Shown: positions 3,275-34,323 of the stretch, one piece after another
Position numbering within the stretch: position 1 is the stretch's first letter
How the letters are laid out: every line of letters begins with the position of its first letter
Assembly: GCA_043719045.1 (NCBI GenBank)
Contig: JAYSUN010000433.1
Span: 1 to 34,622 of the forward strand
From: Hyphomicrobiaceae bacterium
GTDB taxonomy: Bacteria; Pseudomonadota; Alphaproteobacteria; Rhizobiales; Hyphomicrobiaceae
Direction of reading: 5' to 3'
DNA length: 34,622 bases
Translations under genes and position numbers: made by a program
The notes under the pieces: generated by a model
What the model was told of the DNA's origin: nothing
What the model saw: only the letters and a program-made list of their open reading frames with translations
Databases searched by the model: none

Positions 3275-3332
3275 GGCGACGATTGCCGCACCGTCTTGAA
3301 AAGTTGCCAGCAACATTCGCGCTGGCCGGCTC

Positions 3333-3362
3333 TCCCTCTCGACTGCGGTGAGCCGAGAGGGA
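3333..3362 (+). terminator. Candidate stem-loop downstream of matB (TCCCTCTCG / CGAGAGGGA, 12-nt loop)
   Basis: A 9-bp perfect stem pairs 3333-3341 with 3354-3362. Only a weak T tract (CATTTGC) follows, so termination activity is uncertain. Confidence 0.3.
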
Positions 3363-3384
3363 CATTTGCAAGCCACTGAAATAG

Positions 3385-3552
3385 CCGGTGTGCCGGGCGC
3401 GGCCGCTGCGGTTTGGCGCGCTTAAAGCGCACATGCCCGATATCTCAGCAAAAGTTTTGACCGACCGTTTGCGCCACCTCGAGAGGGCTCAACTGGTCAG
3501 CCGCGATTACCGGCCAACGATTCCGCCGGCCGTCATTTCGCCCCTAGCGTAG
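3385..3552 (+). pseudogene. HxlR-family winged-helix regulator remnant (truncated at both ends)
   Basis: My own translation of this frame gives ...ARPLRFWRALKAHMPDISAKVLTDRLRHLERAQLVSRDYRPTIPPAVISPLA*. This matches the HxlR core pattern (RF.EL...IP.IS.K.LT.RLR.LE..GLV.R..Y...PP.VEY.LT). An in-frame TAG sits at 3382-3384, and both the N-terminal third and the C-terminal tail are missing. Confidence 0.55.
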
Positions 3553-3578
3553 CTTCAGGCGCATGCTAGCTTAGGGCC

Positions 3579-3812
3579 ATGCCAGCACCGACACTTTTCG
3601 ATGTCATCGTCACGAAACTGAAGGCCGCCGTGCCGGACGTGCAGCGCGATGTCTTGCGGTTTATCGAAGCGATCGAGACCAAAGAGGCTTTGCAAGACGC
3701 GCGCTTTGAAGATTCGTTTGAGCCGTTTTTTGGCCTAACACAGGGGGCTTATGTGTTCGATGGCGATCCGGTCGATCTGCAGCGGAAGTTGCGGAGCACG
3801 AAAGACCAGTGA
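3579..3812 (+). CDS. Type II antitoxin, DUF2281-like, partner of the PIN toxin
   Basis: 77 aa. The N-terminus (...KLKAAVPDVQRDVLRFIEAIETKE) and the acidic C-terminus (FDGDPVDL) fit the DUF2281-style antitoxin pattern. Its TGA stop (3810-3812) overlaps the GTG start of the PIN gene at 3809. Confidence 0.6.
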   Translation: MPAPTLFDVIVTKLKAAVPDVQRDVLRFIEAIETKEALQDARFEDSFEPFFGLTQGAYVFDGDPVDLQRKLRSTKDQ

Positions 3813-4180
3813 GCGGTTTCGTTCTGGATACCAACATCATCATCGGTCTACTCGATGGCCGCGAGTCGGCGCGTCACGTCCTGGAACAGCAGCGCGCTCG
3901 TCCATCGAATTGCGGGGTCAGCCAAATCACCCGACTTGAGTTGCTGGGTTTTGCCGGATTGTCGGCCGGTGAGGACGGCAAGATTCGTGCGTTTTTGTCG
4001 ACCGTGACGATGTTGCGCTTGGATGACTTCGTCGAAGCACGCGTGATCGCCTTGCGACGCACGACGCGGCTGACGTTGCCAGATGCGATCGTGGTTGCAA
4101 CCGCACTGGTCAACGGGCGGACGCTTTTGACCCTGGATGCGTTGCTGGAGGCTGCATTCACTCTGGCGGCCCGCCGTTAG
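3809..4180 (+). CDS. vapC: PIN-domain ribonuclease toxin (VapC family)
   Basis: FVLDTNIIIGLL carries the first PIN acidic residue. The C-terminal LPDAIVVATALVNGRTLLTLD is also typical. Size is 123 aa, and a GTGA overlap couples it to the upstream small ORF. Confidence 0.8.
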   Translation: MSGFVLDTNIIIGLLDGRESARHVLEQQRARPSNCGVSQITRLELLGFAGLSAGEDGKIRAFLSTVTMLRLDDFVEARVIALRRTTRLTLPDAIVVATALVNGRTLLTLDALLEAAFTLAARR

Positions 4181-4293
4181 TCCATATCGCGATGGCGCCC
4201 AAAAGCCACAGCTTGGGAGCCAAAGTCGCTGGCTGGGCGCCGCAGCATCGGTTCGGGCTTGGCCAACACCGGCGATGCACCTACTATTACTTC

Positions 4294-4866
4294 ATGAAAT
4301 TATTGAGACATTTGGTCCAGGCGGGAACCGCCCTGGTCGGATTAGCGGCTTTGCCAGCCCAAGCTGTGGCCCAACCGCCCGAGCCCTTTGTCCGCGAAAT
4401 CAAACTTGGCATTTTGGCCCACGACGTCCCGGAGATCTGGAGCGGGTTCCGGCGAGAGCGCGGCATCGACATCAACGCCGAAGTCATCTTGTCGCCGTCG
4501 TTGGCATTTCTTGGCGGGCATTTCCGACCAGCTGTTGGCGGCTCACTGAACCTTCAAAACGGTGGTTTCGACCGTGGCACATCCAAGGTCTATGCCGATG
4601 TCCGCTGGATGTATGAGGCCAGCAATGGGTTGTTTATCGGGCTCGGCATCGGGGCTGCTTGGCACAACGGCTTGCTCGATCCCGTCGACCCCGCGCGCAA
4701 GGCGCTTGGCCGCCGCGTGCTGTTCCACTTCCCGTTGGAAATCGGGTACCGCTTGGACGCGCACAACAGCCTTTCGCTGTATTTTGACCACATCTCAAAC
4801 GCCTACACCAAACCGTCGAACGAGGGGCTCGACACCCTTGGCGTCCGCTACGGCTACAAATTCTGA
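4294..4866 (+). CDS. Acyloxyacyl hydrolase / lipid A 3-O-deacylase (PagL-like) outer-membrane protein
   Basis: Start reset to MKLLRHLVQAGTALVGLAALPAQAVA, a Sec signal peptide. The product is beta-barrel-like with a C-terminal aromatic residue (YGYKF). It has an HISNA motif resembling the PagL His-x-Ser catalytic pair. Confidence 0.6.
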   Translation: MKLLRHLVQAGTALVGLAALPAQAVAQPPEPFVREIKLGILAHDVPEIWSGFRRERGIDINAEVILSPSLAFLGGHFRPAVGGSLNLQNGGFDRGTSKVYADVRWMYEASNGLFIGLGIGAAWHNGLLDPVDPARKALGRRVLFHFPLEIGYRLDAHNSLSLYFDHISNAYTKPSNEGLDTLGVRYGYKF

Positions 4867-4971
4867 CGCGGCTCGTTTGCTTGTGGGCTTGACACACGCG
4901 TCGTGACGGCGTGGCCTCCGCCGCAAACCGGCTTGCGCCCGACAAGAAGTGCAAGTGCCAAGACCCGCGAC

Positions 4972-5799
4972 TTACTCAACCTTGCTCTTGGCTTTCTCGA
5001 TTCGTTCAACCACCCAGATCGAGATGAAGTAGAGGCCGACCGTGGGGGCCATCATAGCGAGCATCGAGAACGGGTCAGGCGGCGACAAGACGGCTGACGC
5101 TGCAGTGATGGCGACAATGGCGTAGCGCTTAAAATCTCTCAGGCCCTGCGACGTGACGATGCCGGCTTGCGCGAGGAGTGCCAGGACGACCGGTAACTGG
5201 AAAATGACGCCAAAACCGAGGATCAGCTGCATGATCAGCGACAAATACTCAGCGATGCGCGGCATCAGCTCGAAGGGTTTCTTGACATCGGCGCCTGCGG
5301 TGATCGAGCTGCCCAACGCAAACTTGATCAGCAATGGCATGACCACAAAATAGACCACCATCGCGCCGAGAATGAACAGAAGCCACGTCCACAACAGATA
5401 GGGACGAAACGCCTGTTTCTCGTTTTTGTAGAGGCCGGGGGCGACGAACTTATACAGCTGATAGGCGGTGATCGGGAACGAGAGGAACAAGGCCCCGAAC
5501 ATCGCCAGCTTGATATTGGTGAACAATTCCTCGAGCAGACCGGTTGCGATCATCACGATGTTGGGCGCGACATTGCGGAGCGGCCAGGTCAGTACGCCGT
5601 AGATCTGCGACGCGAACATGAAGCACAGGACGAACATCGCAAAGAAGGCATAACCCGAATAGATCAGCCGCTGACGCAGCTCGATCAGGTGCTCCATCAA
5701 TGGCGCTTTAGAGGCCTCAATCTCGTCATGCCCCTCAGGCTTGTCGGGCTTGATCGGCTCAAGCGGAGATGTGGGTTTGGTTGCGACCATATCCTGCAT
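4972..5799 (-). CDS. tatC: Twin-arginine translocase subunit TatC
   Basis: APLMEHLIELRQRLIYS is followed by a six-TM hydrophobic profile. The gene lies immediately downstream of tatB. Confidence 0.95.
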   Translation of the reverse strand: MQDMVATKPTSPLEPIKPDKPEGHDEIEASKAPLMEHLIELRQRLIYSGYAFFAMFVLCFMFASQIYGVLTWPLRNVAPNIVMIATGLLEELFTNIKLAMFGALFLSFPITAYQLYKFVAPGLYKNEKQAFRPYLLWTWLLFILGAMVVYFVVMPLLIKFALGSSITAGADVKKPFELMPRIAEYLSLIMQLILGFGVIFQLPVVLALLAQAGIVTSQGLRDFKRYAIVAITAASAVLSPPDPFSMLAMMAPTVGLYFISIWVVERIEKAKSKVE

Positions 5800-5802
5800 G
5801 AT

Positions 5803-6264
5803 CTACGCCCCGACTTTGACTGGAACGGCGGGGGCTGGGACGTTGGGTACAGGTGCGGCGGGTACAGGTGCTGCCGGCTCAGCCACCGCCGGCATCGATG
5901 ACGCTGGCTCCGCAACAGACGGCCCGAGGGCGTCAATCCGGCCGAACTCAGGTGGCGGGTTCTGCGCGAGCGAAGCTTCCAGTTCAGCGTTAGCGGTTGC
6001 GACCTCTTTTTCGACACTCATCTCAGCTTCGCGCATGGTTGTTGCCATGTCCTGGCCCATCGCCTCGACGTCCTTCTTGATGGAGTCGAGTTCACTTTCG
6101 CGCATGGCGTCATCGAATTGAGTGCGAAATTCAGCGGCCTGACGCCGGATCATGCCGACATACTTGCCAATCGTGCGGAGCAGCAACGGCAATTCCTTCG
6201 GTCCGACGACGATCAATGCGACGAGGCCGAGGATCAAGAGTTTCGATGACGCGAGGTCGAACAT
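5803..6264 (-). CDS. tatB: Twin-arginine translocase subunit TatB
   Basis: MFDLASSKLLILGLVALIVVGPKELP is the TatA/B-family N-terminal TM plus amphipathic helix. The tail is Pro/Ala-rich. Confidence 0.9.
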   Translation of the reverse strand: MFDLASSKLLILGLVALIVVGPKELPLLLRTIGKYVGMIRRQAAEFRTQFDDAMRESELDSIKKDVEAMGQDMATTMREAEMSVEKEVATANAELEASLAQNPPPEFGRIDALGPSVAEPASSMPAVAEPAAPVPAAPVPNVPAPAVPVKVGA

Positions 6265-6334
6265 CGTGCCGCTGACTGTCCTTGTGTTACAAAGTGATGG
6301 ATCGGCTCACGTTAAGTCTAATGGCAATGGCCAG

Positions 6335-6388
6335 AAACAACCAAGCGGGCCGAACGCTCTCGAATTGAACGCCGCCCGCTTGTTGTTT
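6335..6388. other. Bulged GC-rich hairpin in the tatA-tatB spacer (AAACAACCAAGCGGGC ... GCCCGCTTGTTGTTT)
   Basis: Arms 6335-6350 and 6374-6388 pair with one bulged C. A/T-rich runs flank both sides. It could attenuate tatA to tatB read-through on the minus strand. Confidence 0.35.
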
Positions 6389-6460
6389 TGTGCACGAATT
6401 GTGCCTGCGGGCTGTTGCTGCCTGCGTGCAATGGGTCGTGTGGCACTGCGCCGTTACACC

Positions 6461-6694
6461 TCAGACGCTGGTCGTCTGATTGGTCTTGGTTTCCATCGGC
6501 TTTACAGCCTGGGTATCAATTGTCTTGGGCGGCTCGGGTTTTTTCGCCGCGTCGTCATCGGCCATGCCCTTTTTGAAGCTCTTGATGCCATCGGCCACGT
6601 CGCCCATGATCGACGAAATTTTACCTTTGCCGCCGAACAGGAGCAGCGCCACGGCCAGAAAGATCAGCCAGTGCCATACGCTCAAGCTACCCAT
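6461..6694 (-). CDS. tatA: Twin-arginine translocase subunit TatA
   Basis: [44 protein letters not shown] is a canonical TatA. Start set at the second Met of the track ORF. Confidence 0.9.
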
Positions 6695-6810
6695 TTGAAT
6701 CCACTCCACTTTGCAGCCCGTGCCGCTTTTGTTTCCAAACCACTATCGCAGAAAGATGTGGCGGCTTCAAGCAAAGCCATGGCTGGATGCAAAATTCTCA
6801 TTTTGGACCC

Positions 6811-7136
6811 GTGTGGCGTCGCGCCTTGGTTGATCGGTGTTCCGGCTCGACTGGTCTCAACCAAGGCGCGATGACCGCCACACTCAGCCAATGATTTTGC
6901 TCGTGGCCCTCATGTCGCGCCAAAATTGAAAGAAGTCGCGGCCATTCAGCAATTTTGGCGCGACGGGCCACGAGTGTGGCGTCGCGCCTTGGTTGATCGG
7001 TGTTCCGGCTCGACTGGTATCAACCAAGGCGCGATGAACGCCACACTCAGCCAATGATTTGCTCGTGGCCCTATTGTCGCGCCAAAATTGAAAGACGTCG
7101 CGGCAATTCAGCAATTTTGGCGCGACGGGCCACGAG
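6811..7136. repeat. Tandem duplication (2 units of about 163 bp, nearly identical) of an intergenic element composed of two long imperfect hairpins
   Basis: Unit 1 is 6811-6973 and unit 2 is 6974-7136. They differ by only a few substitutions and a 1-nt indel. In unit 1, hairpin a is 6811-6883 (GTGTGGCG..GCGCCTTGGTTGA / TCAACCAAGGCGC..CGCCACAC). Hairpin b is 6900-6974 (CTCGTGGCCC..GTCGCGCCAAAATTG / CAATTTTGGCGCGAC..GGGCCACGAG). Confidence 0.9.
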
Positions 7137-7209
7137 TGGTCTGCATCGGCTTATTTCGCTCATGGGCGGTGCCCATGTCCAGCCGTCATTTGTGGACCGG
7201 TGCGAGAGT

Positions 7210-7287
7210 GCCAAGTGGACCTCCGAGGGCAAGTCCATCCGTACAATCGCGGCACTTCTAAATCGTGCCCGATTGTCAAAGTCGCGC
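7210..7287 (+). pseudogene. Possible scar of a recombinase/transposase-type helix-turn-helix
   Basis: The frame reads AKWTSEGKSIRTIAALLNRARLSKSR. This resembles the C-terminal HTH of serine recombinases and IS orfA proteins (..EGKSIR.IA.LL.VSRSTLYR). There is no catalytic domain and the surrounding ORF is junk-like. Confidence 0.25.
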
Positions 7288-7671
7288 GAAATGAGTCGAG
7301 ATACCGGCGATGACCAAGGCGTGGCTGGCAACAGTCTTGTCGAAGATCGGGTCTCTCGCCTGCGCGACTATCGCTACTGTTTTTTTGCAATTCTGGAGGC
7401 CGCCTTGCTCGCGCAGTGGGCGCCGTTGCCCGCATTGCCAGAGGTTGGTGCATGGCGGGCGAAGAACGGTGAAGCGCCAACCCGTCGGCGATCTTTTGTG
7501 TGGTATTCCAGACACATACAGGCCGAAATGGCTTCCAAAAAAGCAAACTGAGATTGAAAAAATCCTTCCACGATAGTCACTGTCAATCAGAAAAAAAGAC
7601 AATCCACAGAAATTAAATAAACGTCCCCATTGCCGAACGTGTTCACCGAAATTCAATTTCGGAGCGTTGAT

Positions 7672-8961
7672 ATGCGTCAGTTGTTCTCGTTGATTTCATG
7701 TGCGCTCATCACCGCCTCGATGGCCGGGTGTTCCGTGCTCAGTTCAGACCTGTTGGAATTCAAGCCCGATGGTGGCTGCCAAAGCGGTGCTGGAACCTAC
7801 TATCTGCCGAAGACGCATCTTGGCGTCAAAGTCGAGCGGCTGACGTACGCGAACACCGACATCCAGCACCAGATTACCATCAAGAAGTTGCGCGTGCCGG
7901 ATCGCTATTTCGGCTATTGTCTCGATTATCTATCGCGCTTGACCTCAGACGATATTGTCCACGTCAAGCGCTATTCCAACACGCAGCTTCTTGGTCTCGT
8001 CAGCACCGATGTGGTGGATCAATCGGGTGCGATTCTGCGGACCTTCGTTCGAGCGGTTCTCGGCGGGTTGGCTGGGCGAACGCGTGTGGCTGGCACGGCG
8101 CAAAAAGCGACGGTGTTTGAAGCGGACTATGACCCGTTCGACGTGGTGGCTTCGGCGCAAGTCAACGACGCATTGCGCAAGTTCGGCTTCTGCCTGATGT
8201 TCGAAGGTGACTTTGCCCGCGACGCGCGCAAGATCCAAAGTTATTGCAGCCATCCGACGGCTGCGCCCAAAGCCGTGCCGGAGCCGCCCTACCAGTTGGC
8301 GTATCGCGATCGTTTGTCTGCGGATCGAAAAACGTTGCCGGGTCTGTTCTATCGACCACGTGTGCCGTACAGCTACTATCTGTTCGTGCGCGATGTGCCT
8401 GAGGCGCACAATAGCCCATGGGCACTGCGCGAATCCGCCGTAGTGGACCTCGAGAACATTTCTCCGATCCTGGCCGTGCGTGTCGACCGCGCCTTCTTCG
8501 CGCAACGTAAAACGACGCTGGTGTTCGACGAGGGCGCCTTGAGGAATGTATGCATCTATAAATCCGCCGAACTGGAGGAGGTCGGCAAGGTCGCGCTCGA
8601 TATCGCCAAGAGCATCGTCGCGCTCCCAGCCCAGACGTTCCAGGTCAAGATCGATCAGGTCTCCGGCCAGGAGGCTCTGGCGCGCGCCGAGTTGGCGGCA
8701 TTGAAGGCGCAGCAGAGCTATGACAACGCATTGAACAAAGTCGCCGGCACGCAACCGAACGTTCTCTCGACTGTCAACGATCCTTTCATGGTCAAAACGG
8801 CTCCGCCGACAGCCGAGTCGTTGAAGCTCGAACGGCAGACCGCGGTGCAAGCCGGCGATCTGGCGGCCCTGTGGACGGCGGCCTGTCCCACGGTCTCAAC
8901 CGCCGCTCCGCTGTCTGCGACCAACGCGCCTGGCAATACCATCGGAGGGATCACTCAATGA
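7672..8961 (+). CDS. Lipoprotein of unknown family (paralog A)
   Basis: Start set at MRQLFSLISCALITASMAGC (lipobox MAG-C), with GGAG 7 nt upstream. It is clearly paralogous to the next gene, sharing GTYYL.K.HL.V.VER, YCLDY, DPF....NDALR..GFCL, SYC.HP, YRPRV and EN.SP..AV..DRAFFA.RKTT..FD.G.LR. I recognise no characterised domain. Confidence 0.8.
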   Translation: MRQLFSLISCALITASMAGCSVLSSDLLEFKPDGGCQSGAGTYYLPKTHLGVKVERLTYANTDIQHQITIKKLRVPDRYFGYCLDYLSRLTSDDIVHVKRYSNTQLLGLVSTDVVDQSGAILRTFVRAVLGGLAGRTRVAGTAQKATVFEADYDPFDVVASAQVNDALRKFGFCLMFEGDFARDARKIQSYCSHPTAAPKAVPEPPYQLAYRDRLSADRKTLPGLFYRPRVPYSYYLFVRDVPEAHNSPWALRESAVVDLENISPILAVRVDRAFFAQRKTTLVFDEGALRNVCIYKSAELEEVGKVALDIAKSIVALPAQTFQVKIDQVSGQEALARAELAALKAQQSYDNALNKVAGTQPNVLSTVNDPFMVKTAPPTAESLKLERQTAVQAGDLAALWTAACPTVSTAAPLSATNAPGNTIGGITQ

Positions 8962-24193: not shown

Positions 24194-25318
24194 GTGGAGA
24201 TGCACTTCGACTATCTCGTGATCGGTGCCGGCATTTCCGGTGCCGCCGCGGCTTACGAACTGGCGCCCGCAGGGTCGGTTGCGATGATCGAGGCAGAGGC
24301 TGTGCCTGGCTATCACAGCACGGGCCGGTCAGCCGCGCTCTACACCCGCAATTTCGGCAATCGAACTGTGCAGCGGATCAATCATGCGAGCCACGCCTTC
24401 TTGAGCAATCCTCCAACCGGGTTCTCCGATGGGTCACTGTTGACGCCGCGCGGGTCACTGACGATTGCCGCACCGGGCGAAGAAGCGCGTCTGCTGCCGA
24501 TCCTCGCACTGTCATCCCTCGGGCACGAGGTCGAATTGGTCTCGGCCGCGCGAGCACTTGAGCTTGCACCGATCATGCGACCTCGTCGGGTCGCTGCCGC
24601 CGCCTACGAACGCGGTGTCATGGATATGGATGTCGCGTCCTTGCATCAGGGCTATCTGCGCGCGTTCAAACTCCGGGGCGGACACATTATCTGCGGGCGC
24701 CGGATCGAGCGGTTGGAGCGACGCGACGGGACATGGCATGCGGTGGCAGGCGACGTTTCTCTATCGGCACGCGTCATCATCAACGCAGCCGGCGCTTGGG
24801 CCGGACAGATTGGCGAATTGGCCGGCGCCACCGCCATCGGGCTTGTCGCCAAGCGACGAACCGCAATCCTTATCGATGCGCCCGGCGGTGTCGACCTCGG
24901 GACCATGCCAGCGGTCGACTATGTGACCAGCGACGCTTACTATAAACCGGATGCCGGCCGCATCATGGCATCGCCTGGCGATCAGACCCCGATCGCGCCG
25001 CAGGACGTGCAACCCGAGGACTACGATGTCGCCGTGCTGGCGGACTGGCTGGAGACGGAGACACACATCAAGGTGACACGCATCGAGGCCAGCTGGGCTG
25101 GCTTGCGCTCGTTTGTTTCCGACGACGTCCCGGTTGTCGGCTTCGACGGTTTAGCCGAGGGATTCTTTTGGCTGGCCGGGCAAGGTGGCTACGGAATAAT
25201 GATGGCGCCAGCGCTGGGCCGCGCCGCCCACGGCCTGATCAGCGAGGGATCATTGCCCGCGGACCTGCTCGCGTCAGGTATCAACGCTCACGATCTATCA
25301 CCGAACCGATTGCGGTGA
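24194..25318 (+). CDS. FAD-dependent oxidoreductase (DAO / glycine-D-amino-acid oxidase-like family)
   Basis: FDYLVIGAGISGAAAAYELA is the dinucleotide-binding motif, and length and C-terminus are DAO-family-like. The start is either GTG 24194 or ATG 24200. Confidence 0.8.
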   Translation: MEMHFDYLVIGAGISGAAAAYELAPAGSVAMIEAEAVPGYHSTGRSAALYTRNFGNRTVQRINHASHAFLSNPPTGFSDGSLLTPRGSLTIAAPGEEARLLPILALSSLGHEVELVSAARALELAPIMRPRRVAAAAYERGVMDMDVASLHQGYLRAFKLRGGHIICGRRIERLERRDGTWHAVAGDVSLSARVIINAAGAWAGQIGELAGATAIGLVAKRRTAILIDAPGGVDLGTMPAVDYVTSDAYYKPDAGRIMASPGDQTPIAPQDVQPEDYDVAVLADWLETETHIKVTRIEASWAGLRSFVSDDVPVVGFDGLAEGFFWLAGQGGYGIMMAPALGRAAHGLISEGSLPADLLASGINAHDLSPNRLR

Positions 25319-25502
25319 CCGACAGCGTTCGTCTCAACCAAGTGCGCTTTCCACATGATGTGGCTCATGACTGACCACAGTCAGTGTCAGCGTGACACCC
25401 AATCGCGACCGTCGCAATGTAGAGCCGGTGTCCGCGGCCAGTGTTGAACAGGCGAAGATTGCGTCTATGGTACGGCTCACAATTCGATCAGGAGCGACGT
25501 CC

Positions 25503-26312
25503 ATGTCCGCACAGTCTGAAAAAGCCAAAGCCTTCGCGGCCATGCACGTGGCCAAAGGTGGTTTCATCCTGCCCAACCCATGGGATCGTGGCTCCTCGCG
25601 CATCATGGCGCACCACGGGTTCCAAGCGCTTGCAACCTCAAGCGCGGCGTTTGCCAACACGCTGGGTCGAGCCGACTATCAAGTGACTCGCGATGAGGCG
25701 ATGGCGCATTGCCGCGATATCGTGGCCGCAACCGACCTACCGGTCACCGCTGACTTGGAACGCTGCTTTGCCGATAAGCCCGAAGGTGTTGCTGAAACGA
25801 TCCTGTTGGCGTCAGAGACGGGCATCGTCGGGTGCTCGGTCGAGGACGCAACCGGCAATCCGGACGAGCCCTTGTATCCATTCGAGATGGCGGTTGAACG
25901 GGTTCGCCTTGCGGTGAAGGCGGCCGAGCGTGTCGGCTTTCCGTTTTTGATCACCGCACGGACGGAAGCTCTGCTGGTTGGCATCAAGGATATGGATGAA
26001 ATCATTCGGCGACTGAAGGCTTTTGATAAGGCGGGCGCGCACGTGCTTTATGCCACGGGCGTGACCTCCCTCGATCAAGCGAAGCAGATTGTGGACGCCG
26101 TGCATAAGCCGGTCAACGTCATGGCGATGAAAATGCTGTCGGCGCCGGAGCTGATTGCTGCCGGGGTCAAACGCGTGAGTTTGGGCCCATGGTTCGCCCG
26201 TGCGGCCGTACAGGGGCTATTAGACGCGATTGGCGAAGTTAAGGCCAAGGGCACGTTTACGTTTGCCAGCAAAACCCCAACCGGCGCCGACATCGCAAGG
26301 ATGTTGAAATAG
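25503..26312 (+). CDS. Isocitrate lyase / PEP mutase superfamily protein (2-methylisocitrate lyase-like)
   Basis: Start at MSAQSEKAKAF, with AGGAG upstream. FILPNPWDRGSSRIMAHHGFQALATSSAAFA and DLPVTADLERCF resemble the PEPM/ICL-fold pattern (P..WD..SA......GF.A...S). Confidence 0.75.
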   Translation: MSAQSEKAKAFAAMHVAKGGFILPNPWDRGSSRIMAHHGFQALATSSAAFANTLGRADYQVTRDEAMAHCRDIVAATDLPVTADLERCFADKPEGVAETILLASETGIVGCSVEDATGNPDEPLYPFEMAVERVRLAVKAAERVGFPFLITARTEALLVGIKDMDEIIRRLKAFDKAGAHVLYATGVTSLDQAKQIVDAVHKPVNVMAMKMLSAPELIAAGVKRVSLGPWFARAAVQGLLDAIGEVKAKGTFTFASKTPTGADIARMLK

Positions 26313-26596: not shown

Positions 26597-28249
26597 ATGT
26601 TGACACCGACTCGCCAGCTGCTTGGACTTTCAACCGCTGTTGCAGCCTTGCTATCGACGGCGCCAATTGCGCTGGCTCAGGAAAAAGTGCTGCGCATTGC
26701 CATGACGGCCGCGGACATCCCGAAAACCAGTGGCCAGCCCGACCAGGGGTTCGAGGGCAATCGCTTCACCGGTATTCCGCTGTTCGACGCCTTGACGCAC
26801 TTCGACTTGTCGTCCGCCGATAAGCCGAGCACGCTGATCCCTGGCTTGGCCACGGAGTGGAAGGTCAACGACGCCGACAAAACCAAGTGGACATTCAAAC
26901 TGCGCCCCGGCGTGAAATTCCATGATGGATCGGCACTCACCGCCGCCGCCATTGTCTGGAACGTGCAGAAGGTCCTCGACAAAGACGCACCGCACTTTGC
27001 GCCCGACCAGATCGGAGTGACCGTCTCCCGGATGCCGACGCTGGCTTCGGCGAAGGCCATTGACGATCTGACCGTCGAACTCACCACCAAAGAGCCGGAC
27101 AGCTTCCTGCCGCTCAATCTGACCAACCTGTTCATCGCTTCGCCCGCGCATTGGCAAGCCAAATATGATGGCCTCGCCGCAGTCGCCGACAAGGCCGAAC
27201 GCGCCAAGCAAGCTTGGGGCCTGTTCGCCGCCGACGCATCGGGCTCGGGCCCGTTCAAAATGTCAAAATTCCAACCGCGTGAACGCGTCGAATACGTCGC
27301 CAACAAAGCCTATTGGGATCCGAAGCGTACGACGAAGCTCGATCGCGTCGTCCTCGTGCCGATGCCGGAAGCCAACGCGCGCACTGCGGCTCTGCTGTCC
27401 GGCCAGGTCGACTGGATCGAGAACCCAGCACCAGATGCCGTCAAGAGCATCAAGGACAAGGGCTTCGTCATCACCACAAATGCCCAACCACACGTGTGGC
27501 CGTGGCAGTTCTCAATGGTCGAAGGGTCGCCGTGGGCCGACAAACGTGTGCGTCATGCAGCCAACCTGTGCATCAACCGCGAGGAGCTCAAAGGCGCCCT
27601 CAACGGCCTCATGGAAGTTCCGAAAGGCACCGTGCCGCCAGGTCATCCCTGGTGGGGCAATCCGAAGTTCGAGATCAAGTATGATCTCGCTGCCGCGAAG
27701 AAGTTGATGGAGGAAGCTGGCTTCAGTGCTTCAAAGCGCCTGAAGGTCAAGACGCTGACCTCCGCATCAGGCTCCGGCCAGATGCAGCCGATCGCCATGA
27801 ACGAGTATCTGCAGCAGGCGCTGAAGGAGTGCTACTTCGACGTCGAACTCGATGTTGTCGAATGGAACGCGCTGTTCACCAACTGGCGCGCGGGCGCAAA
27901 AGATCCGACCTCGCGCGGGGCGCATGCCACCAACGTGACCTATGCGGCCATGGACCCATTCTTCGCGATGGTCCGCTTCTCGTCGTCGAAGACGCTGCCG
28001 CCGGTGTCGAACAACTGGGGCTACTATACGAGCCCGGAACTCGACGCGCTGATCACGACCGCACGCACGTCGTTTGCCGACGCGGAACGTGACGCAGGCC
28101 TCGCCAAGCTGCATGCCAAGATCGTCGAGGATGCACCGTTCCTGTGGGTCGCCCACGACGTTGGTCCACGTGCCATGAGCTCCAAGATCAAAGGCTTCGT
28201 TCAGCCGAAGAGCTGGTTCGTCGATCTAGCACCGGTGAGCATGGAGTAA
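26597..28249 (+). CDS. ABC transporter substrate-binding protein, family 5 (peptide/opine/nickel)
   Basis: Signal peptide LLGLSTAVAALLSTAPIALAQE. WTFKLRPGVKFHDGSALTA is the SBP_bac_5 pattern. Size is 550 aa. Confidence 0.9.
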   Translation: MLTPTRQLLGLSTAVAALLSTAPIALAQEKVLRIAMTAADIPKTSGQPDQGFEGNRFTGIPLFDALTHFDLSSADKPSTLIPGLATEWKVNDADKTKWTFKLRPGVKFHDGSALTAAAIVWNVQKVLDKDAPHFAPDQIGVTVSRMPTLASAKAIDDLTVELTTKEPDSFLPLNLTNLFIASPAHWQAKYDGLAAVADKAERAKQAWGLFAADASGSGPFKMSKFQPRERVEYVANKAYWDPKRTTKLDRVVLVPMPEANARTAALLSGQVDWIENPAPDAVKSIKDKGFVITTNAQPHVWPWQFSMVEGSPWADKRVRHAANLCINREELKGALNGLMEVPKGTVPPGHPWWGNPKFEIKYDLAAAKKLMEEAGFSASKRLKVKTLTSASGSGQMQPIAMNEYLQQALKECYFDVELDVVEWNALFTNWRAGAKDPTSRGAHATNVTYAAMDPFFAMVRFSSSKTLPPVSNNWGYYTSPELDALITTARTSFADAERDAGLAKLHAKIVEDAPFLWVAHDVGPRAMSSKIKGFVQPKSWFVDLAPVSME

Positions 28250-28389: not shown

Positions 28390-29343
28390 ATGCTCATCTA
28401 CATCGCCAAACGCATCGTCTACACGCTGCCCATCATGTTGGGCGTGGCGTTTGTGTGCTTTCTGCTGGTGCACATGGCACCGGGTGATCCCTTGGTGTCG
28501 GTGTTGCCACCGGACGCCTCGGAGAGCCTGAAGCTGCAGTTGATGGCTCTCTACGGCTTTGACCGACCGTACTACGAGCAGTTCTTCAAATGGCTGGGTC
28601 GCGCCTTGACCGGCGATCTTGGCTCATCAATCCGCACCAATCGACCAGTGGTGCTCGAAGTCGCCAAAGCCGTCAACAATACCTTGATGCTGGCCGCGCT
28701 CGCGACCACCATTGGTTTTGTGCTGGGAGGTTTTTTTGGCTTTGTCGCTGGATACTTCCGCGACACATGGCTCGACAAACTGGCGTCCTTTGTTTCAGTT
28801 ATCGGCGTATCCGTCCCACATTATTGGTTGGGGATGGTGCTGGTCATCATCTTTGCCGCCACTCTCGGCTGGTTACCCCCGACCGGCGCAGGACCGGGCG
28901 GATCGGAAGCCTGGAAATGGAACTGGGAACACGTGCGCCACATGATCCTGCCCGCCATCACGATGTCATTCATTCCAATGGGGATCATCGCCCGGACTGT
29001 GCGGGCGCTGGTCGCTGAAATCCTCAGCCAGGAATTTATTGCCGGCCTGCGCGCGAAGGGGCTGACGGATTTCGGGGTCTTCCGTCACGTGGTCAAGAAT
29101 GCGGCCCCGACGGCGCTTGCGGTCATGGGCATCCAACTCGGCTATCTGCTCGGCGGCTCGATCCTGATTGAAACTGTCTTCTCATGGCCGGGCACGGGCC
29201 TGTTGCTCAACGATGCGATCTTCCAGCGTGACCTCCCCGTCCTGCAGGGAACGATTCTGGTGTTGTCGATCTTCTTCGTGCTCCTCAACCTCGCCGTCGA
29301 CGTCATGCAGACGGCGCTCGATCCGCGCATTCAAAGAGCGTAG
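28390..29343 (+). CDS. ABC transporter permease (DppB/OppB type)
   Basis: MLIYIAKRIVYTLPIMLGVAFVCFLLVHMAPGDP is a typical N-terminus, followed by a six-TM profile. Confidence 0.9.
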   Translation: MLIYIAKRIVYTLPIMLGVAFVCFLLVHMAPGDPLVSVLPPDASESLKLQLMALYGFDRPYYEQFFKWLGRALTGDLGSSIRTNRPVVLEVAKAVNNTLMLAALATTIGFVLGGFFGFVAGYFRDTWLDKLASFVSVIGVSVPHYWLGMVLVIIFAATLGWLPPTGAGPGGSEAWKWNWEHVRHMILPAITMSFIPMGIIARTVRALVAEILSQEFIAGLRAKGLTDFGVFRHVVKNAAPTALAVMGIQLGYLLGGSILIETVFSWPGTGLLLNDAIFQRDLPVLQGTILVLSIFFVLLNLAVDVMQTALDPRIQRA

Positions 29344-29397
29344 AGAGACGGGTCGTCTGTGCCGACAAGGACGAGAAACCATCGAGACGTTCCTGCC

Positions 29398-29814
29398 ATG
29401 ACCAATACAATTCAAAATCAACTCGATCGACTGGAGCAGATGTCGTTGCCCTACGGTGCGCGGTCGGCCGGCCGTGTCGAAGACCTGAAAGCCGCGTTTC
29501 AATCCGACTATGGCGCAGAGCCCTCCACCGCGACGTTCGCGGCCTTGCTGAATGTCTGCGAAGCAGTTCCGACGCGGGAGTATACCTCGCTCACGTTGAC
29601 GCCGGATGGCGGCTGGTATGTTGAGTGGCAGCTGGAAGACAAGAGCCGGCTCGCTATTGAGTTCTGTGACGACGGGGTCGCGCATTTTATTCTTCATCAA
29701 CGCAATCCTCGGCACCCCAGTAAAACTGTTGTCATGTCCGGTTCAACAACGTCCGATGCACTGGTCCAGACCACCATAAATCCTCTGGCTCCTTGGATGA
29801 GGCGAGCGGCATGA
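29398..29814 (+). CDS. Hypothetical protein, first gene of the two-gene cassette inside the ABC operon
   Basis: ORF with ATG at 29398 (alternative GTG at 29359). I recognise no domain. A/T-ending codons are visibly enriched compared with the flanking permease genes. Its stop overlaps the start of the next ORF (ATGA at 29811-29814). Confidence 0.6.
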   Translation: MTNTIQNQLDRLEQMSLPYGARSAGRVEDLKAAFQSDYGAEPSTATFAALLNVCEAVPTREYTSLTLTPDGGWYVEWQLEDKSRLAIEFCDDGVAHFILHQRNPRHPSKTVVMSGSTTSDALVQTTINPLAPWMRRAA

Positions 29815-30251
29815 AGGGCGATGCTATTCCGGATCAAGATCACGTGACGCGTTTGTGTGGAGGCTCGCATCTGCGCGAAGATGGCACGATTGCGCCAACG
29901 GCGCTTTGCCTGCGCCAAGGTGAGATCTACCTTTCAGTCAATTGGCTTGAGTGCCTTGAGCTTCCAAGCCGCGATTTACAGGTTGCCGAGGTGGGCCGTG
30001 TCCTCGCCGGCAAACGATCATTCGGGTCGATGGCGAAGCTTGCTGTTTTGAATGTCGGCGATATCCACACAGCGCATGTGGTTGTCGGCAATGCCTTCAC
30101 CGCTCTTGAGGTTCGCCACGAGCCAGAAATTGAGCCGCCCGATGTGTCGCACAGTGGCATTCACGGCATCAGAACGATCGATCTCTTGTTGCATGACCAC
30201 TTAGCAAAGATCGTCCTAGACGCATTACCTGCAAAGCCTGCACTGTCATGA
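29811..30251 (+). CDS. Hypothetical protein, second gene of the two-gene cassette inside the ABC operon
   Basis: Start set at MKGDAIPDQDHVTRLC. It has ATGA overlaps with both the upstream ORF and the downstream permease gene (30248-30251). I recognise no domain. Notable motifs are DHVTRLC, YLSVNWLE and DVSHSGIHGI. Confidence 0.6.
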   Translation: MKGDAIPDQDHVTRLCGGSHLREDGTIAPTALCLRQGEIYLSVNWLECLELPSRDLQVAEVGRVLAGKRSFGSMAKLAVLNVGDIHTAHVVVGNAFTALEVRHEPEIEPPDVSHSGIHGIRTIDLLLHDHLAKIVLDALPAKPALS

Positions 30252-31126
30252 GCTTGATGATCACCACCCTCGAACCCGTGCAACGGTCGCCGAGTTATTC
30301 GGCGACCGTCTGGCGGCGCTTCAAACGCGACCCGCTGGCGATTGCGGCGGGTATCGTCGTTCTTTTGCTGATCCTGATGGCGATCTTTGCGCCGTACATC
30401 GCCCTTCAGGATCCGTACAAAGGGATGGCGTTGCGGCGCCTTCGGCCACCTGGCTCAGATGGATATCCACTCGGCACAGATGAACTCGGGCGCGACATGC
30501 TCACACGGCTGATCTACGGCGCGCGGTTGTCACTGTTTATGGGTATCACGCCGGTGATCCTGGCACTGATTGGTGGCGCCACCATCGGCATCACCGCCGG
30601 CTATGCAGGTGGTTGGGTCAACACGATTCTGATGCGGATTGTCGATGTGTTCTTTGCCTTTCCCTCGGTGCTTCTTGCGATTGCACTCTCGGGCGCGCTC
30701 GGTGCTGGCATCACCAATGGTTTGATCTCGCTGACGGTGGTATTTATTCCGCCCATTGCACGCGTTGCTGAAAGTGTCACAACCAGCGTCCGCACGCGCG
30801 ATTACGTTGAGGCGGCACGCGCGAGTGGCGCTGGCGCCTTTCGCATTGTCCGCACGCAAGTGCTCGGCAATGTCATGGGACCCATCTTTGTCTACGCGAT
30901 GAGCCTCATCGCCGTGTCGATGATCCTCGCGTCGGGATTGTCATTCCTTGGTCTCGGCGTGAAACCGCCAGAGCCCGAGTGGGGCCTCATGCTCAATACC
31001 TTGCGCACCGCCATCTATACGCAACCCCTGCTCTGCGCGCTGCCGGGATTGATGATCTTCCTGACGTCGATCGCTTTTAATCTACTGACCGATGGATTGC
31101 GTTCGGCCATGGACATCAAATCGTGA
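30248..31126 (+). CDS. ABC transporter permease (DppC/OppC type)
   Basis: LGTDELGRDMLTRLIYGARLSL is the DppC motif, with a six-TM profile. Confidence 0.9.
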   Translation: MSLMITTLEPVQRSPSYSATVWRRFKRDPLAIAAGIVVLLLILMAIFAPYIALQDPYKGMALRRLRPPGSDGYPLGTDELGRDMLTRLIYGARLSLFMGITPVILALIGGATIGITAGYAGGWVNTILMRIVDVFFAFPSVLLAIALSGALGAGITNGLISLTVVFIPPIARVAESVTTSVRTRDYVEAARASGAGAFRIVRTQVLGNVMGPIFVYAMSLIAVSMILASGLSFLGLGVKPPEPEWGLMLNTLRTAIYTQPLLCALPGLMIFLTSIAFNLLTDGLRSAMDIKS

Positions 31127-32160
31127 CCGGCTCCGCAACATCAAGTTCGTCAGCTCCATTGCTCGAGGTCGTCGACCTCGCGAAACTATTTCCGCTCAAG
31201 TCCGGAATTTTGGGCCGCAGCGAATCTCTAGTCCGGGCCGTCGACGGTGTGTCGTTTGCAGTCACGGAAGGTGAAACGCTGGGCATCGTCGGTGAATCCG
31301 GTTGCGGTAAATCAACGACGGCCCGGCTCCTCATGCAGCTGATCGCGCCGACCAGTGGCGCTATCCGTTTTCGCGGGCTGACCGTCGGCACCACCGAAAT
31401 GCCACTGAAGGAATTTCGCCGCCAGGTGCAGATGGTGTTTCAGGACAGCTACGCGTCGCTCAATCCGAGGCTCACCGTCGAAGCCTCGATCAGCTTTGCA
31501 CCAACCGTGCATGGTGTCAGCCGAGACGAAGCCACGCGTCGCGCCCGCGCCTTGTTGGATCGCGTCGGCCTTGACCCCGTGCGTTTCGCCGGCCGCTATC
31601 CGCACGAGCTGTCCGGCGGTCAGCGCCAACGCGTCAACATCGCCCGCGCACTGGCAGTGCAGCCACGTGTGCTGATTCTCGATGAAGCCGTTTCCGCGCT
31701 CGACAAGTCGGTCGAGGCGCAAGTGCTCAATCTTCTGCTCGACTTGAAAGAGGAAATGGGTCTGACGTATCTGTTCATCAGCCACGACCTTGAAGTCGTC
31801 CGCTTTATGTCACAACGCGTGCTCGTCATGTATCTCGGCAAAGTTGCCGAAGTCGGCCCGACCGAAGCCCTCTACACCGGCAGCCGTCACCCGTACACGA
31901 CAGCGTTGCTTGGCTCGCTGTTATCGATGGACCCCGACAACCGCCGCACTGCAGCACCCCTCGCCGGAGATCCTCCGAACCCAATTGATCCACCAAGCGG
32001 CTGCCGGTTCCATACCCGCTGCAGTTTTGCCGAGGCCATCTGCAGCGCACGGCAGCCAGCACTTGCACACATCGATGGCGGCCATATCGCTGCGTGCCAT
32101 ATGGCGGATTTAGCCTCGGGTCATACCAAGGCGCAGACGGCTCGAGAGGTGGCCGCATGA
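31123..32160 (+). CDS. Peptide ABC transporter ATP-binding protein (DppF/OppF type)
   Basis: Walker A GESGCGKST, signature LSGGQRQR and Walker B LILDEAVSALD. A GTGA overlap couples it to the permease gene. Confidence 0.9.
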   Translation: MTGSATSSSSAPLLEVVDLAKLFPLKSGILGRSESLVRAVDGVSFAVTEGETLGIVGESGCGKSTTARLLMQLIAPTSGAIRFRGLTVGTTEMPLKEFRRQVQMVFQDSYASLNPRLTVEASISFAPTVHGVSRDEATRRARALLDRVGLDPVRFAGRYPHELSGGQRQRVNIARALAVQPRVLILDEAVSALDKSVEAQVLNLLLDLKEEMGLTYLFISHDLEVVRFMSQRVLVMYLGKVAEVGPTEALYTGSRHPYTTALLGSLLSMDPDNRRTAAPLAGDPPNPIDPPSGCRFHTRCSFAEAICSARQPALAHIDGGHIAACHMADLASGHTKAQTAREVAA

Positions 32161-33140
32161 CCGCGCCGGTTGACGATATTGTCCTGCAGATCGACCAATT
32201 GAGCGTCACTTTTTTGGGCGGGCCCAAACCGGTCCGCGCGGTCGATGCCGTTGATCTGTACGTGCGCCGTGGCGAGGTTGTCGCGTTGCTGGGCGAGTCC
32301 GGCTCTGGCAAAAGTGTCACGCTGCGCTCCATCCTGCGGTTGCACAACGAAGCCAAAACCACGATCACCGGCCGCATCAGCGTCGACGGCACCGACATCA
32401 TGACCTTGCACGGCGACACGCTCTCCGACTTCCGCGGCAAGACCGTCTCAATGATATTTCAAGAACCGATGCTGGCACTAGATCCCGTCTATACCGTCGG
32501 TCAACAGATCATCGAAGCGATCCGCCGTCACGAAAGCATCACGGCCGCAGATGCTCGTGCCCGTGCGTTGCAGCTGTTCGAACGTGTCCGCATTCCGAGC
32601 CCCGACCGGCGCCTCGAAGCCTATCCACATGAAATGTCCGGCGGCATGCGTCAGCGCGCGATGATCGCGCTGTCGTTGGCGTGCAATCCAAAAGTCTTGT
32701 TGGCAGATGAGCCGACGACGGCACTGGATGCGACCGTTCAAGTCCAGATTCTCTTGCTGCTGCGCGAATTGCAACGTGAGCTGGGCCTGTCGATGATCTT
32801 CGTTACCCACGACATCGGCGTGGCCGTTGAGGTCGCCGATCGCGTCGCGGTCATGTATGCTGGCCGCATTGTTGAGCTTGGCCCGGTCCGCGATGTGCTG
32901 CGGACACCGCGTCATCCCTATACGATCGGCCTGCTATCGACGCGCGCTCACGGCGGTAAACTGCAAGGCAATCGCTTGCCAACCATCCCAGGCAGCCCAC
33001 CTGACCTGGCCAACCTGCCACCCGGTTGCGCCTTCGCGCCACGTTGCAACCAGGCCACCGATGCATGCCGGCACCAACAACCTGATGCGGTCAGGTTAAG
33101 CCACGCCCATAGCGTCCGCTGCGTGATGGCGGCGCCTTGA
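32157..33140 (+). CDS. Peptide ABC transporter ATP-binding protein (DppD/OppD type)
   Basis: Start at MTAPVDDIVLQI, with an ATGA overlap. Walker A GESGSGKS, signature MSGGMRQR and Walker B LLADEPTTALD. Confidence 0.9.
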   Translation: MTAPVDDIVLQIDQLSVTFLGGPKPVRAVDAVDLYVRRGEVVALLGESGSGKSVTLRSILRLHNEAKTTITGRISVDGTDIMTLHGDTLSDFRGKTVSMIFQEPMLALDPVYTVGQQIIEAIRRHESITAADARARALQLFERVRIPSPDRRLEAYPHEMSGGMRQRAMIALSLACNPKVLLADEPTTALDATVQVQILLLLRELQRELGLSMIFVTHDIGVAVEVADRVAVMYAGRIVELGPVRDVLRTPRHPYTIGLLSTRAHGGKLQGNRLPTIPGSPPDLANLPPGCAFAPRCNQATDACRHQQPDAVRLSHAHSVRCVMAAP

Positions 33141-33339
33141 GGGGTGGGCGATCGTTGCGCGGCTTCAAGCGGACTGTCGCCGATCATGTAGACATCGCCT
33201 ACCGCGTCACGCTCGAACACGGCCTTCAGCTTGAGCGACAAAGGGAAGCGACGGATCGTGCTATGATTTGGTCTCGCCATTTTTTGGGTTGAGCTTGCGG
33301 CCGCGACGCGGCATGGATGCACCACTGAAGGAGCCGCCG

Positions 33340-34323
33340 ATGCCCGTCCCCCAATCCGTTTTCGATCCACCCTTCAATATCGTCCGTGCCAGCCACGCCG
33401 TGCTAGCTGTAACGGATCTGGCGCGCAGTCGTGCCTTTTATGAAGGTGCCCTCGGCCTGCATGTTGAGGACGCGACGCACGACACGCTTTTCCTGCGTGG
33501 ATTGGAAGAGCGCCAACACCACTCATTGGTTCTAACCAAAGCCCCGAAAGCCGCAGCCAGAGCCATCGCCTGCAAAGTCGCGAGTGAAATGGATCTGGAC
33601 AAGGCCATGGCTTTTGCCAAGCGCTCGGGCCTGCAACACGCCTTGATCGAGCAACCATTTCAGGGGCGCACGTTGCGCGTCACGGACCCGTTCGGCATGC
33701 CCATCGATTTTTACTACAAAATGGAACAGCGCGAACGGTTGTTGCAAAGCTACGGTCATTACAAAGGCGTGCACCCACAGCGCCTCGATCACTTCAATAT
33801 GTTTGCGCCCGACGTCCAGGGTGCGATCGATTTTTATACGTCACTCGGGTTCCGGCTCACCGAGTACGCGGAAGAGGACGGCCTGAATGGCCGCATCGCC
33901 GCGGGATGGATGCAACGGAAGGGCAATGTCCACGACGTCGCCTTTACGAACGGCAACGGTCCGCGCTTGCATCATGTCGCCTATTGGGTACCGACTGCGA
34001 TGCATATCATCCACCTCTGCGATGTCATGGCGACCACCGGTTATCTGACCAACCTGGAACGCGGCCCCGGCCGGCACGGCATTTCGAACGCCTTTTTCCT
34101 GTATGTCCGCTGCCCCGACGGCCACCGCGTCGAAATCTATACCAGCGATTATCAGACCATGGATCCCGACCACGAGCCGATCCGCTGGAGCTTACGTGAT
34201 CCGCGCCGTCAGACCTTTTGGGGCATGCCGGCGCCGAAATCCTGGTTCGAGGAAGGCACGCCTTTCGAAGATACACCCGTGCGCGATGCACTGTTCAAAG
34301 CGCAAGTGATCGTCGCGGACTGA
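33340..34323 (+). CDS. hpaD: 3,4-dihydroxyphenylacetate (homoprotocatechuate) 2,3-dioxygenase, type I extradiol (HPCD/MndD type)
   Basis: From memory it aligns along its whole length with Brevibacterium HPCD (RLDHFN, WM.RK..VHD.A.T.GNGPR.HH.A, ERGPGRHG.SNAF.LY...PDGHR.EIYT.DY). Start chosen at MPVPQS, which has GAAGGAG 6 nt upstream. The alternative ATG is 33313. Confidence 0.85.
   Translation: MPVPQSVFDPPFNIVRASHAVLAVTDLARSRAFYEGALGLHVEDATHDTLFLRGLEERQHHSLVLTKAPKAAARAIACKVASEMDLDKAMAFAKRSGLQHALIEQPFQGRTLRVTDPFGMPIDFYYKMEQRERLLQSYGHYKGVHPQRLDHFNMFAPDVQGAIDFYTSLGFRLTEYAEEDGLNGRIAAGWMQRKGNVHDVAFTNGNGPRLHHVAYWVPTAMHIIHLCDVMATTGYLTNLERGPGRHGISNAFFLYVRCPDGHRVEIYTSDYQTMDPDHEPIRWSLRDPRRQTFWGMPAPKSWFEEGTPFEDTPVRDALFKAQVIVAD

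Follow-up and report, generated by a model that had tools for sequence, protein, structure and literature searches.

Two small open reading frames (ORFs), ORF1 (138 aa) and ORF2 (146 aa), lie between the permease genes permB and permC of an ATP-binding cassette (ABC) importer operon in a Hyphomicrobiaceae bacterium. They were studied in a stretch of 34,622 nt (GCA_043719045.1, contig JAYSUN010000433.1, forward strand), which we call the window. In our judgement there is an even chance that the pair is the two-gene core of a new, horizontally spreading module of toxin–antitoxin-like or defence-like (abortive-defence) type, with ORF2 as the putative effector and ORF1 as its partner. This interpretation draws on the overlap of the two genes, the asymmetric conservation of their products, an interchangeable third gene in relatives, sporadic spread, atypical codons, repeated insertion and residence in restriction-modification loci. 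A sequence-only reading of the same DNA had placed the two ORFs between a DppB-type and a DppC-type permease gene, with an ATGA overlap at either end of ORF2; the coordinates, the domains of the flanking genes and both overlaps were confirmed (Table 1).

That reading had also supposed that the operon is normally uninterrupted and that the cassette was inserted into it. A metagenome scan with permB returned 80 loci at 68-88% identity, of which 76 hold both permease genes. In all 76 of these orthologous operons permB and permC are joined directly, with a gap of -22 to +88 nt and no cassette, which indicates that the operon is otherwise uninterrupted and that the pair was inserted into it. The opposite possibility, raised in the same reading, that orthologous ABC operons widely carry both genes, did not hold, as none of the 76 does. 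At the borders of the cassette in the window we looked for flanking repeats, an integrase, tRNA genes and Rfam families, and found none.

The insertion has rewired the junction. The closest orthologues without a cassette show the native junction, '...CGGAGC TGA nnnn ATG', with 4-6 nt from the permB stop to the permC ATG, and the last codons of permB serve as the Shine-Dalgarno site of permC. In the window this site is gone and the start of permC falls within the stop of ORF2. Since no Shine-Dalgarno motif is found 5' of permC, its translation probably depends on re-initiation after ORF2 and is thereby coupled to it. The stop/start overlap between ORF2 and permC is retained at related loci (ATGA in L169/L170, TAATG in L171), which agrees with the earlier claim that the cassette is coupled to the permease gene downstream. 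Overlaps of 4 nt join five consecutive genes, from ORF1 through the second ATPase gene, and point to translational chaining from ORF1 onward. A scan for promoters and terminators within the pair and at its boundaries gave no convincing match, none better than in shuffled sequence, so that the cassette is most likely co-transcribed with the importer from the importer's own promoter. With this wiring, translation of permC, and probably of the ATPase genes, would require ribosomes to pass through the cassette, and an imprecise deletion of the cassette would silence the transporter. Such coupling, together with any addiction effect, would account for the persistence of the pair at this junction despite divergence to ~55% identity.

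The same junction is occupied by the pair in six contigs: the window, L008, L169/L170, L171, L172 and L014. A look-up of the exact permB protein of the window found no record. Over the whole set the permB orthologues are 68-93% identical; relative to the window, identity is 93% in L008, 86% in L169/L170 and 83% in L014, a Hyphomicrobiales metagenome-assembled genome (MAG), and L172, a Joint Genome Institute (JGI) contig, is 93% identical over 151 C-terminal residues. The cassettes have diverged further: between the window and L169, ORF1 is 43% and ORF2 56% identical. In a tree of concatenated ORF1 and ORF2, the copies of the window, L008, L169, L171 and L172 formed one clade in 99% of 500 bootstraps; the L014 copy clustered with copies from unrelated contexts (L001, L003 and L009; 71%), and monophyly of all six junction copies received 15% support. 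The tree of permB, permC and ATPase united the window with L169/170 in 100% of the bootstraps; L014 joined them in 0 of 500 and grouped with cassette-free operons instead (78-88%). The simplest reading is that the junction was probably occupied in two separate acquisitions. An alternative is a single old gain followed by several precise losses.

A further module was found at this site. In L172 (1412-2039), a bona fide toxin–antitoxin pair, MNT (Polbeta/NTP_transf_2) and HepT, has been inserted 3' of the ORF2 homologue and 5' of permC, and here it is HepT whose stop shares an ATGA with the start of permC, so that two different small modules stand in tandem at one junction. The presence of this second pair suggests that the permB-permC junction tolerates, or even attracts, the insertion of small modules of two genes.

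Beyond the importer, both genes belong to sizeable families. ORF2 has 40 homologues besides itself in a set of 5.8 billion proteins. An exhaustive search of its profile against 1.84 billion cluster representatives (50% identity) gave 2,006 clusters at E ≤ 1e-3 and 1,131 at E ≤ 1e-10, and nearly all of the best 150 matches were stand-alone proteins of ~145 aa. For ORF1 a direct search found 4 close homologues, and the profile of the partner family found 956 proteins (about 950 clusters at 90% identity), in a short form of ~122-138 aa, the type present in the window, and a long form of ~200-230 aa. Judged by their homologues, ORF1 and ORF2 are real genes. Every named member that we looked up in either family is annotated as 'hypothetical protein'.

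Among 185,579 species genomes (one genome per species), relatives of ORF2 were confirmed at 237 loci in roughly 17 phyla. The carriers include Alpha- and Gammaproteobacteria (Pseudomonas, Leclercia), Desulfobacterota, Nitrospirota, Acidobacteriota, Chloroflexota, Latescibacterota, Spirochaetota, Actinomycetota and one Nitrosopumilaceae archaeon. Complete E. coli genomes held no copy of the family. An ORF1 homologue stands directly upstream on the same strand in 85 of the 86 ORF2 loci that have an upstream ORF, and the commonest junction between the two is a 4-nt overlap. The pairwise distance matrices of ORF1 and ORF2 are correlated (r = 0.85 over 81 loci), and none of 999 Mantel permutations gave a value as high. 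The upstream pairing and this correlation indicate that the two genes are inherited as a unit. Their surroundings vary: the 139 module-flanking proteins at 75 loci fall into 132 different Pfam families, none of them seen more than three times. As in type II toxin–antitoxin systems, the genes are small, adjacent, co-directional and overlapping, and their distribution is patchy in variable contexts. Some copies are degenerate. L059 and L079 have a truncated ORF2, and P0030 has an ORF2 with a frameshifted C-terminus that lost the D-x-S-H motif. P0101 is a frameshift fusion of both genes; we dropped it as evidence for binding between the two proteins, as it is a frameshift artefact and not a true fusion.

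Conservation in ORF2, computed over 176 diverse members, is concentrated in a few polar residues. S42 is invariant (100%), and W45 (99%), H114 (98%), E47 (97%), P105 (96%) and R14 (94%) are nearly so, followed by H103 (93%), S113 (91%), C16 (90%), D111 (89%) and N44 (87%). The three motifs singled out in the sequence-only reading, DHVTRLC (R14, C16), YLSVNWLE (S42, N44, W45, E47) and SHSGIHGI (S113, H114), are indeed the conserved blocks of the family, and the window copy keeps all the near-invariant polar residues. This polar set suggests catalysis or specific ligand binding. The AlphaFold (AF2) model of ORF2 has a mixed alpha/beta fold with a predicted local distance difference test (pLDDT) score of 92 and a predicted template modelling score (pTM) of 0.87. 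Foldseek gave no significant match to it in the PDB (best E 0.9, template modelling (TM) score at most 0.3), and in BFVD it matched one 149-aa viral protein (E 6.6e-4, TM 0.49). The protein has an isoelectric point (pI) of 5.8, and the family median is 5.4.

Several assignments of ORF2 to known enzyme classes were considered and rejected. A reading as an ADP-ribosyltransferase, RES protein or NADase finds no support in fold or motif: no ADP-ribosyltransferase is among the Foldseek PDB matches listed, and the NAD-related ones that come nearest, a fungal NADase and a phage Tpt1-like protein, reach TM scores of 0.29 and 0.37-0.42 (probability 0.08 for the latter). PD-(D/E)xK, HEPN, 2H and papain-like readings of the motifs were weighed by eye and dropped; C16 is merely 90% conserved. 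In the stretch 'HEPE', E104 and E106 are not conserved across the family.

ORF1 shows a different pattern. In 47 diverse partner sequences W77 is the sole invariant residue, and R26, L30, F89 and G115 are nearly invariant; the window copy retains all five. The protein evolves faster than ORF2 and has almost no conserved polar residues. Its AF2 model (pLDDT 89) begins with three helices, continues as a five-stranded beta meander and ends in short helices, and Foldseek found no match in the PDB (best E 0.15). On this predicted structure and conservation, ORF1 looks like a binding or scaffold protein and not an enzyme. Both ORF1 and ORF2 are acidic and cytoplasmic.

The sequence-only reading had recognised neither protein, and database searches led to the same result. 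Scans with Pfam, NCBIfam, PADLOC and PHROGs gave nothing meaningful for ORF1, ORF2, 39 ORF2 relatives and several partner proteins; weak PAS and PP2C matches (E about 0.01) were taken as noise. PADLOC-DB 2.0 was searched with ORF1, ORF2 and their relatives and with the third-gene families described below; the sole match was a weak one to PDC-S02 (E 0.003, 30 residues). Sequence-profile searches of the PDB (profiles A1, A3 and A7) returned nothing real: the match of profile A3 to a designed Kelch-repeat protein is a sum of weak repeats, and a TorS match had an E value of 0.18. The NetFlax supplementary files contain none of three RefSeq accessions of relatives or candidates, nor the term 'TIGR04255'.

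The wider family has a component that the sequence-only reading, which described a two-gene architecture, had missed. This description holds for the window, but most members of the family are three-gene operons. At least 56 of 81 loci have a third gene immediately 5' of the ORF1-like gene and in the same direction. In at least 39 of them it encodes a TIGR04255-family protein of ~270 aa (NCBIfam E 1e-16 to 1e-25), and in 17 a protein of ~220 aa that is unrelated to TIGR04255. The two third-gene families are unrelated to each other and have no PDB relative by sequence. When the six-frame translation of the window was searched with the c1 (TIGR04255-family) third-gene profile, nothing was found, and the ~220-aa type was absent as well; the window thus represents the minimal form with two genes, as is typical in the alphaproteobacterial sub-clade. 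Our literature search found no paper naming TIGR04255, CHP04255 or IPR026349, and nothing relevant on toxin–antitoxin pairs within ABC operons.

Some of the three-gene operons reside in restriction-modification loci. In L177-L179 (about 3204-5136), L065 and L081 (about 6400-8450) the TIGR04255, ORF1-like and ORF2-like genes stand inside a type III-like locus, between the Res (ResIII/RE_endonuc) and Mod (EcoP15I-Mod-like methyltransferase) genes; in L177-179 the module also has genes for Peptidase_M78 and MNT as neighbours. In sister loci (L173-L176, 2035-4369) the same slot is filled by Peptidase_M78, DUF4411, a 69-aa gene and a solo ORF1-like gene of 122 aa, without an ORF2-like gene, so that the partner family also occurs without ORF2; 122 aa is the length of many of the best-scoring matches of the partner-family profile. 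Elsewhere, L003 has HicB and a TIR-TPR gene near the module. In L001 (5229-5552) and L002 (2512-2835) an HTH_3 (Xre-type) gene runs 4 nt into the ORF1-like gene, which gives an Xre/ORF1-like/ORF2-like operon, with a phage-integrase fragment and an NTP_transf_8 gene nearby; in L001 the integrase adjoins the module.

Three other contexts were noted. In a Devosia MAG (L009, 5937-9233) the two-gene module is placed, co-directionally, between ferredoxin and short-chain dehydrogenase genes, 3' of a large ORF (5937-7160), which looks like a further case of the module inside a host operon. Three Chromatiaceae loci (L024, 7895-11224; L035, 8585-11827; L036, 8578-11850) share a gene for a ~1,100-aa protein just 3' of the ORF2-like gene. 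In L024 the two genes share their direction and lie ~20 nt apart. By sequence the protein is without a relative in the PDB; it may be a fourth component in this lineage. On a Mycobacterium paragordonae plasmid (L180, 3998-5737; NZ_CP025547.1, 81485-79746) a TIGR04255-family gene stands ahead of two hypothetical genes that overlap each other (180 and 142 aa), and the trio adjoins MobF relaxase and type IV coupling protein genes. The layout is like that of the three-gene operons, but the homology of the two small proteins to ORF1 and ORF2 was not established; their likeness is at motif level only (hmmsearch E about 0.003, hhalign probability <10%).

The base composition of the pair differs from that of its host operon. 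The G+C content of third codon positions (GC3) is 0.619 in ORF1 and 0.571 in ORF2, compared with 0.70-0.76 in the operon genes. Relative to 595 windows of 140 codons from the other genes of the window, ORF1 lies at the 5% tail and ORF2 at the 3% tail, so that the A/T-richer third positions noticed by eye in the sequence-only reading are real and moderate. The foreign origin that had been concluded from them needs a more careful wording. The composition does differ from the flanks, and the GC3 of the module is 0.1-0.3 under that of its flanks in every host examined. A recent import, however, is too simple an explanation: window-clade copies at the same site have diverged to ~55% amino-acid identity and their GC3 is nonetheless low, which suggests a maintained property of the module and not merely a sign of recent arrival.

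The domains of the flanking genes identify the host operon as a Dpp/Opp-type importer; its genes and the features of the cassette are collected in Table 1. The longest-ORF call of the second ATPase gene (GTG 32094) probably places the start too far upstream and makes the ORF too long. The importer is flanked (24194-26312 and 33268-34323) by genes for a DAO-type flavin adenine dinucleotide (FAD) oxidoreductase, an enzyme of the phosphoenolpyruvate (PEP)-mutase/isocitrate-lyase family and a two-domain protein of the glyoxalase/dioxygenase family, and in L169 an Asp/Glu racemase gene is present between the solute-binding protein gene and permB. These enzyme genes hint at an unusual amino acid or peptide as the substrate.

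Table 1. Genes and features of the importer operon and of the cassette, in window coordinates
Feature	Position	Strand	Evidence and remarks
Solute-binding protein gene	26597..28249	+	PF00496 SBP_bac_5, E 5e-75
permB, DppB/OppB-type permease, directly 5' of cassette	28390..29343	+	PF00528 BPD_transp_1, E 1.5e-39
Spacer of 54 nt, permB stop to ORF1 start	29344..29397	+	Takes the place of the native permB-permC junction seen in orthologues that lack the cassette
ORF1, 138 aa, short form of partner family	29398 (ATG)..29814	+	Proposed neutraliser/regulator of ORF2; homologues, predicted structure
ATGA overlap, ORF1 stop/ORF2 start	29811..29814	+	Sequence; GAGG Shine-Dalgarno-like motif 9 nt 5'
ORF2, 146 aa, conserved enzyme-like component	29811 (ATG)..30251	+	Proposed effector/toxin; family of ~2,006 clusters at 50% identity
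ORF2 R14-L15-C16 codons, end of strand beta-1	29850..29858	+	R14 94%, C16 90%
ORF2 L41-S42-V43-N44-W45-L46-E47 codons, LSVNWLE signature	29931..29951	+	S42 100%, W45 99%, E47 97%, N44 87%
ORF2 H103-E-P105 through D111-V-S113-H114-S-G116 codons	30117..30158	+	H103 93%, P105 96%, D111 89%, S113 91%, H114 98%
ATGA overlap, ORF2 stop/permC start	30248..30251	+	Sequence; no Shine-Dalgarno motif 5'
permC, DppC/OppC-type permease, directly 3' of cassette	30248..31126	+	PF12911 OppC_N and PF00528 BPD_transp_1
ATPase1 gene	31123..32160	+	ABC_tran and oligo_HPY; GTGA overlap with permC at 31123
ATPase2 gene	32157..33140	+	ABC_tran and oligo_HPY; ATGA overlap with ATPase1 at 32157

In the mechanism that we propose, ORF2 would be an enzyme whose release does harm to the cell or to an invading phage, with R14, S42, N44, W45, E47, H103, D111, S113 and H114 as candidate active-site residues, and ORF1 would bind ORF2 and hold it inactive. 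An invariant polar set in one protein and faster evolution of the other are what would be expected of an effector and its neutraliser. In the three-gene versions the upstream TIGR04255-family or alternative protein would act as sensor, regulator or chaperone, and the alphaproteobacterial short form would manage without it. The toxin–antitoxin or immunity pair proposed in the sequence-only reading is plausible. The architecture, the pairing, the sporadic spread and the presence of some copies in slots rich in restriction-modification or toxin–antitoxin genes agree with it; neither homology nor a DNA-binding domain was found in its support.

Some of our results weigh against the conflict-module interpretation. 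Neither protein is homologous to a known toxin, antitoxin, immunity or defence protein in the Pfam, NCBIfam, PADLOC, PHROGs, PDB-profile or Foldseek searches, and no recognisable DNA-binding domain was found in ORF1 (Pfam, NCBIfam, Foldseek), so that autoregulation is not indicated. ORF2 is acidic, unlike most RNase-type toxins. The pairing and the mirror-tree correlation speak for co-inheritance only, not for binding between the proteins. Toxin–antitoxin and defence modules are usually common on plasmids and phages, but this family was not found in PLSDB (72,556 plasmids), INPHARED (50,697 phage genomes) or IMG/VR, and at most of the 75 loci examined the neighbours are housekeeping genes and not defence islands.

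Several of these points would suit a mobile but non-toxic enzyme and its accessory or regulatory subunit, such as a hydrolase that modifies small molecules or proteins and a partner that activates it or gives it specificity. Such a pair would confer a niche benefit and spread by horizontal transfer, and the operons would simply be tolerated insertion sites. The invariant set of ORF2 does include Ser, His and Asp/Glu, and the explanation also fits the acidic, cytoplasmic nature of the two proteins, their new predicted folds, which have no tie to toxins, the mostly housekeeping flanks and the absence from plasmids and phages. We nevertheless regard this explanation as unlikely, though one to be taken seriously, because 132 flanking families leave no conserved metabolic neighbourhood, the module recurs in restriction-modification loci and beside MNT/HepT, HicB and M78/DUF4411 genes, an interchangeable third component is typical of conflict systems, and the codon usage is persistently atypical. 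The location in the window could instead mean that the pair was recruited for a joint function with the importer, ORF2 processing the imported substrate or regulating the importer and ORF1 serving as its partner. The shared junction in six contigs, the coupling to permC and the apparent double acquisition, which could reflect selection for such a function, would agree with this. It is improbable, however, given that 76 of 76 other orthologous operons (68-88% permB identity) lack the pair, that almost all members of the family are in contexts unrelated to ABC transport, that the MNT/HepT pair in the L172 junction points to a permissive site and not to a shared function, and that the GC3 of the pair is unlike that of the operon. 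Least probable of all, and in our view hardly credible, is a neutral, decaying hitchhiker that has lost its function and is kept because its removal would disturb the expression of permC. The dependence of permC on the ORF2 stop/start overlap and the degenerate copies elsewhere (P0101, P0030, L059, L079) could be read in this way, but both ORFs of the window are intact, the near-invariant polar residues of ORF2 and the W77, R26, L30, F89 and G115 of ORF1 are kept, and the five window-clade copies are intact at 54-64% identity, which implies long-term purifying selection.

The conflict-module interpretation can be extended into a single view that we put forward tentatively, and with some doubt. 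In it the families would make up a broad, unrecognised conflict system with new folds, new effector chemistry and an interchangeable third component, which lives by 'operon-embedded addiction'. The module would spread inside host operons (ABC importers, type III restriction-modification loci, a P450-ferredoxin operon) and capture the translational coupling of the downstream gene, so that loss of the module would silence that gene; the same importer junction would have been occupied at least twice.

If the conflict-module interpretation is true, two sizeable families (~2,000 ORF2 clusters at 50% and ~950 ORF1 clusters at 90% identity) would gain a function, and the long-orphaned TIGR04255 family would be placed in a functional context. 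The effector chemistry of ORF2 may be new as well, given a confident model without structural relatives in the PDB and the sharp conservation of its polar site. The window would show, in a clean natural case, how a selfish module can be wired into an operon of housekeeping genes, with a bearing on how modules persist without plasmids and on the evolution of operon structure. Selfish two-gene modules inserted in chromosomes are already familiar; what appears to be new is this toxin–antitoxin-like or defence-like family, with apparently new folds. The family and its habit of embedding in operons will be of interest mainly to specialists, and homologues in culturable Pseudomonas and Leclercia strains make it experimentally tractable.

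Among known systems, the Xre-RES (MbcTA) and ParST families, type II toxin–antitoxin modules with small enzymatic toxins, offer a close parallel in organization. As in these, ORF1 and ORF2 are small and co-directional, the presumed neutraliser is encoded upstream and evolves faster, stop and start overlap, the downstream protein of ~145 aa has an invariant, polar, enzyme-like set, and the distribution is chromosomal and sporadic over many phyla. In contrast, ORF2 has no similarity in sequence or fold to RES, ParT or any ADP-ribosyltransferase and its toxicity is only putative, and ORF1 lacks an Xre/DUF2384-type domain.

Tripartite toxin–antitoxin–chaperone (TAC) and other three-gene toxin–antitoxin systems are known (PMC5105189; bioRxiv 10.1101/2024.02.24.581848). 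Most members of the present family resemble TAC in having three genes, with an interchangeable extra gene upstream of a conserved pair and a minimal form of two genes. The third gene, however, encodes a TIGR04255-family protein or an unrelated ~220-aa protein and not a SecB-like chaperone, and no chaperone-addiction element was identified.

For residence within a host operon, PrrC is a precedent, being an anticodon nuclease encoded inside the EcoprrI restriction-modification locus. The module between the Res and Mod genes of L065, L081 and L177-179 recalls this arrangement, and so does the module in the window, which lies within a host operon and would rely on the expression signals of that operon. 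There is no similarity to PrrC or RloC, and the host operon of the window is a nutrient importer and not a restriction system. MNT and HepT likewise belong to protein families unrelated to ORF1 and ORF2, which have no nucleotidyltransferase or HEPN features. The likeness in this case is one of position, since in L172 the two modules share the permB-permC junction and the HepT stop meets the permC start in the same ATGA overlap by which ORF2 is joined to permC in the window.

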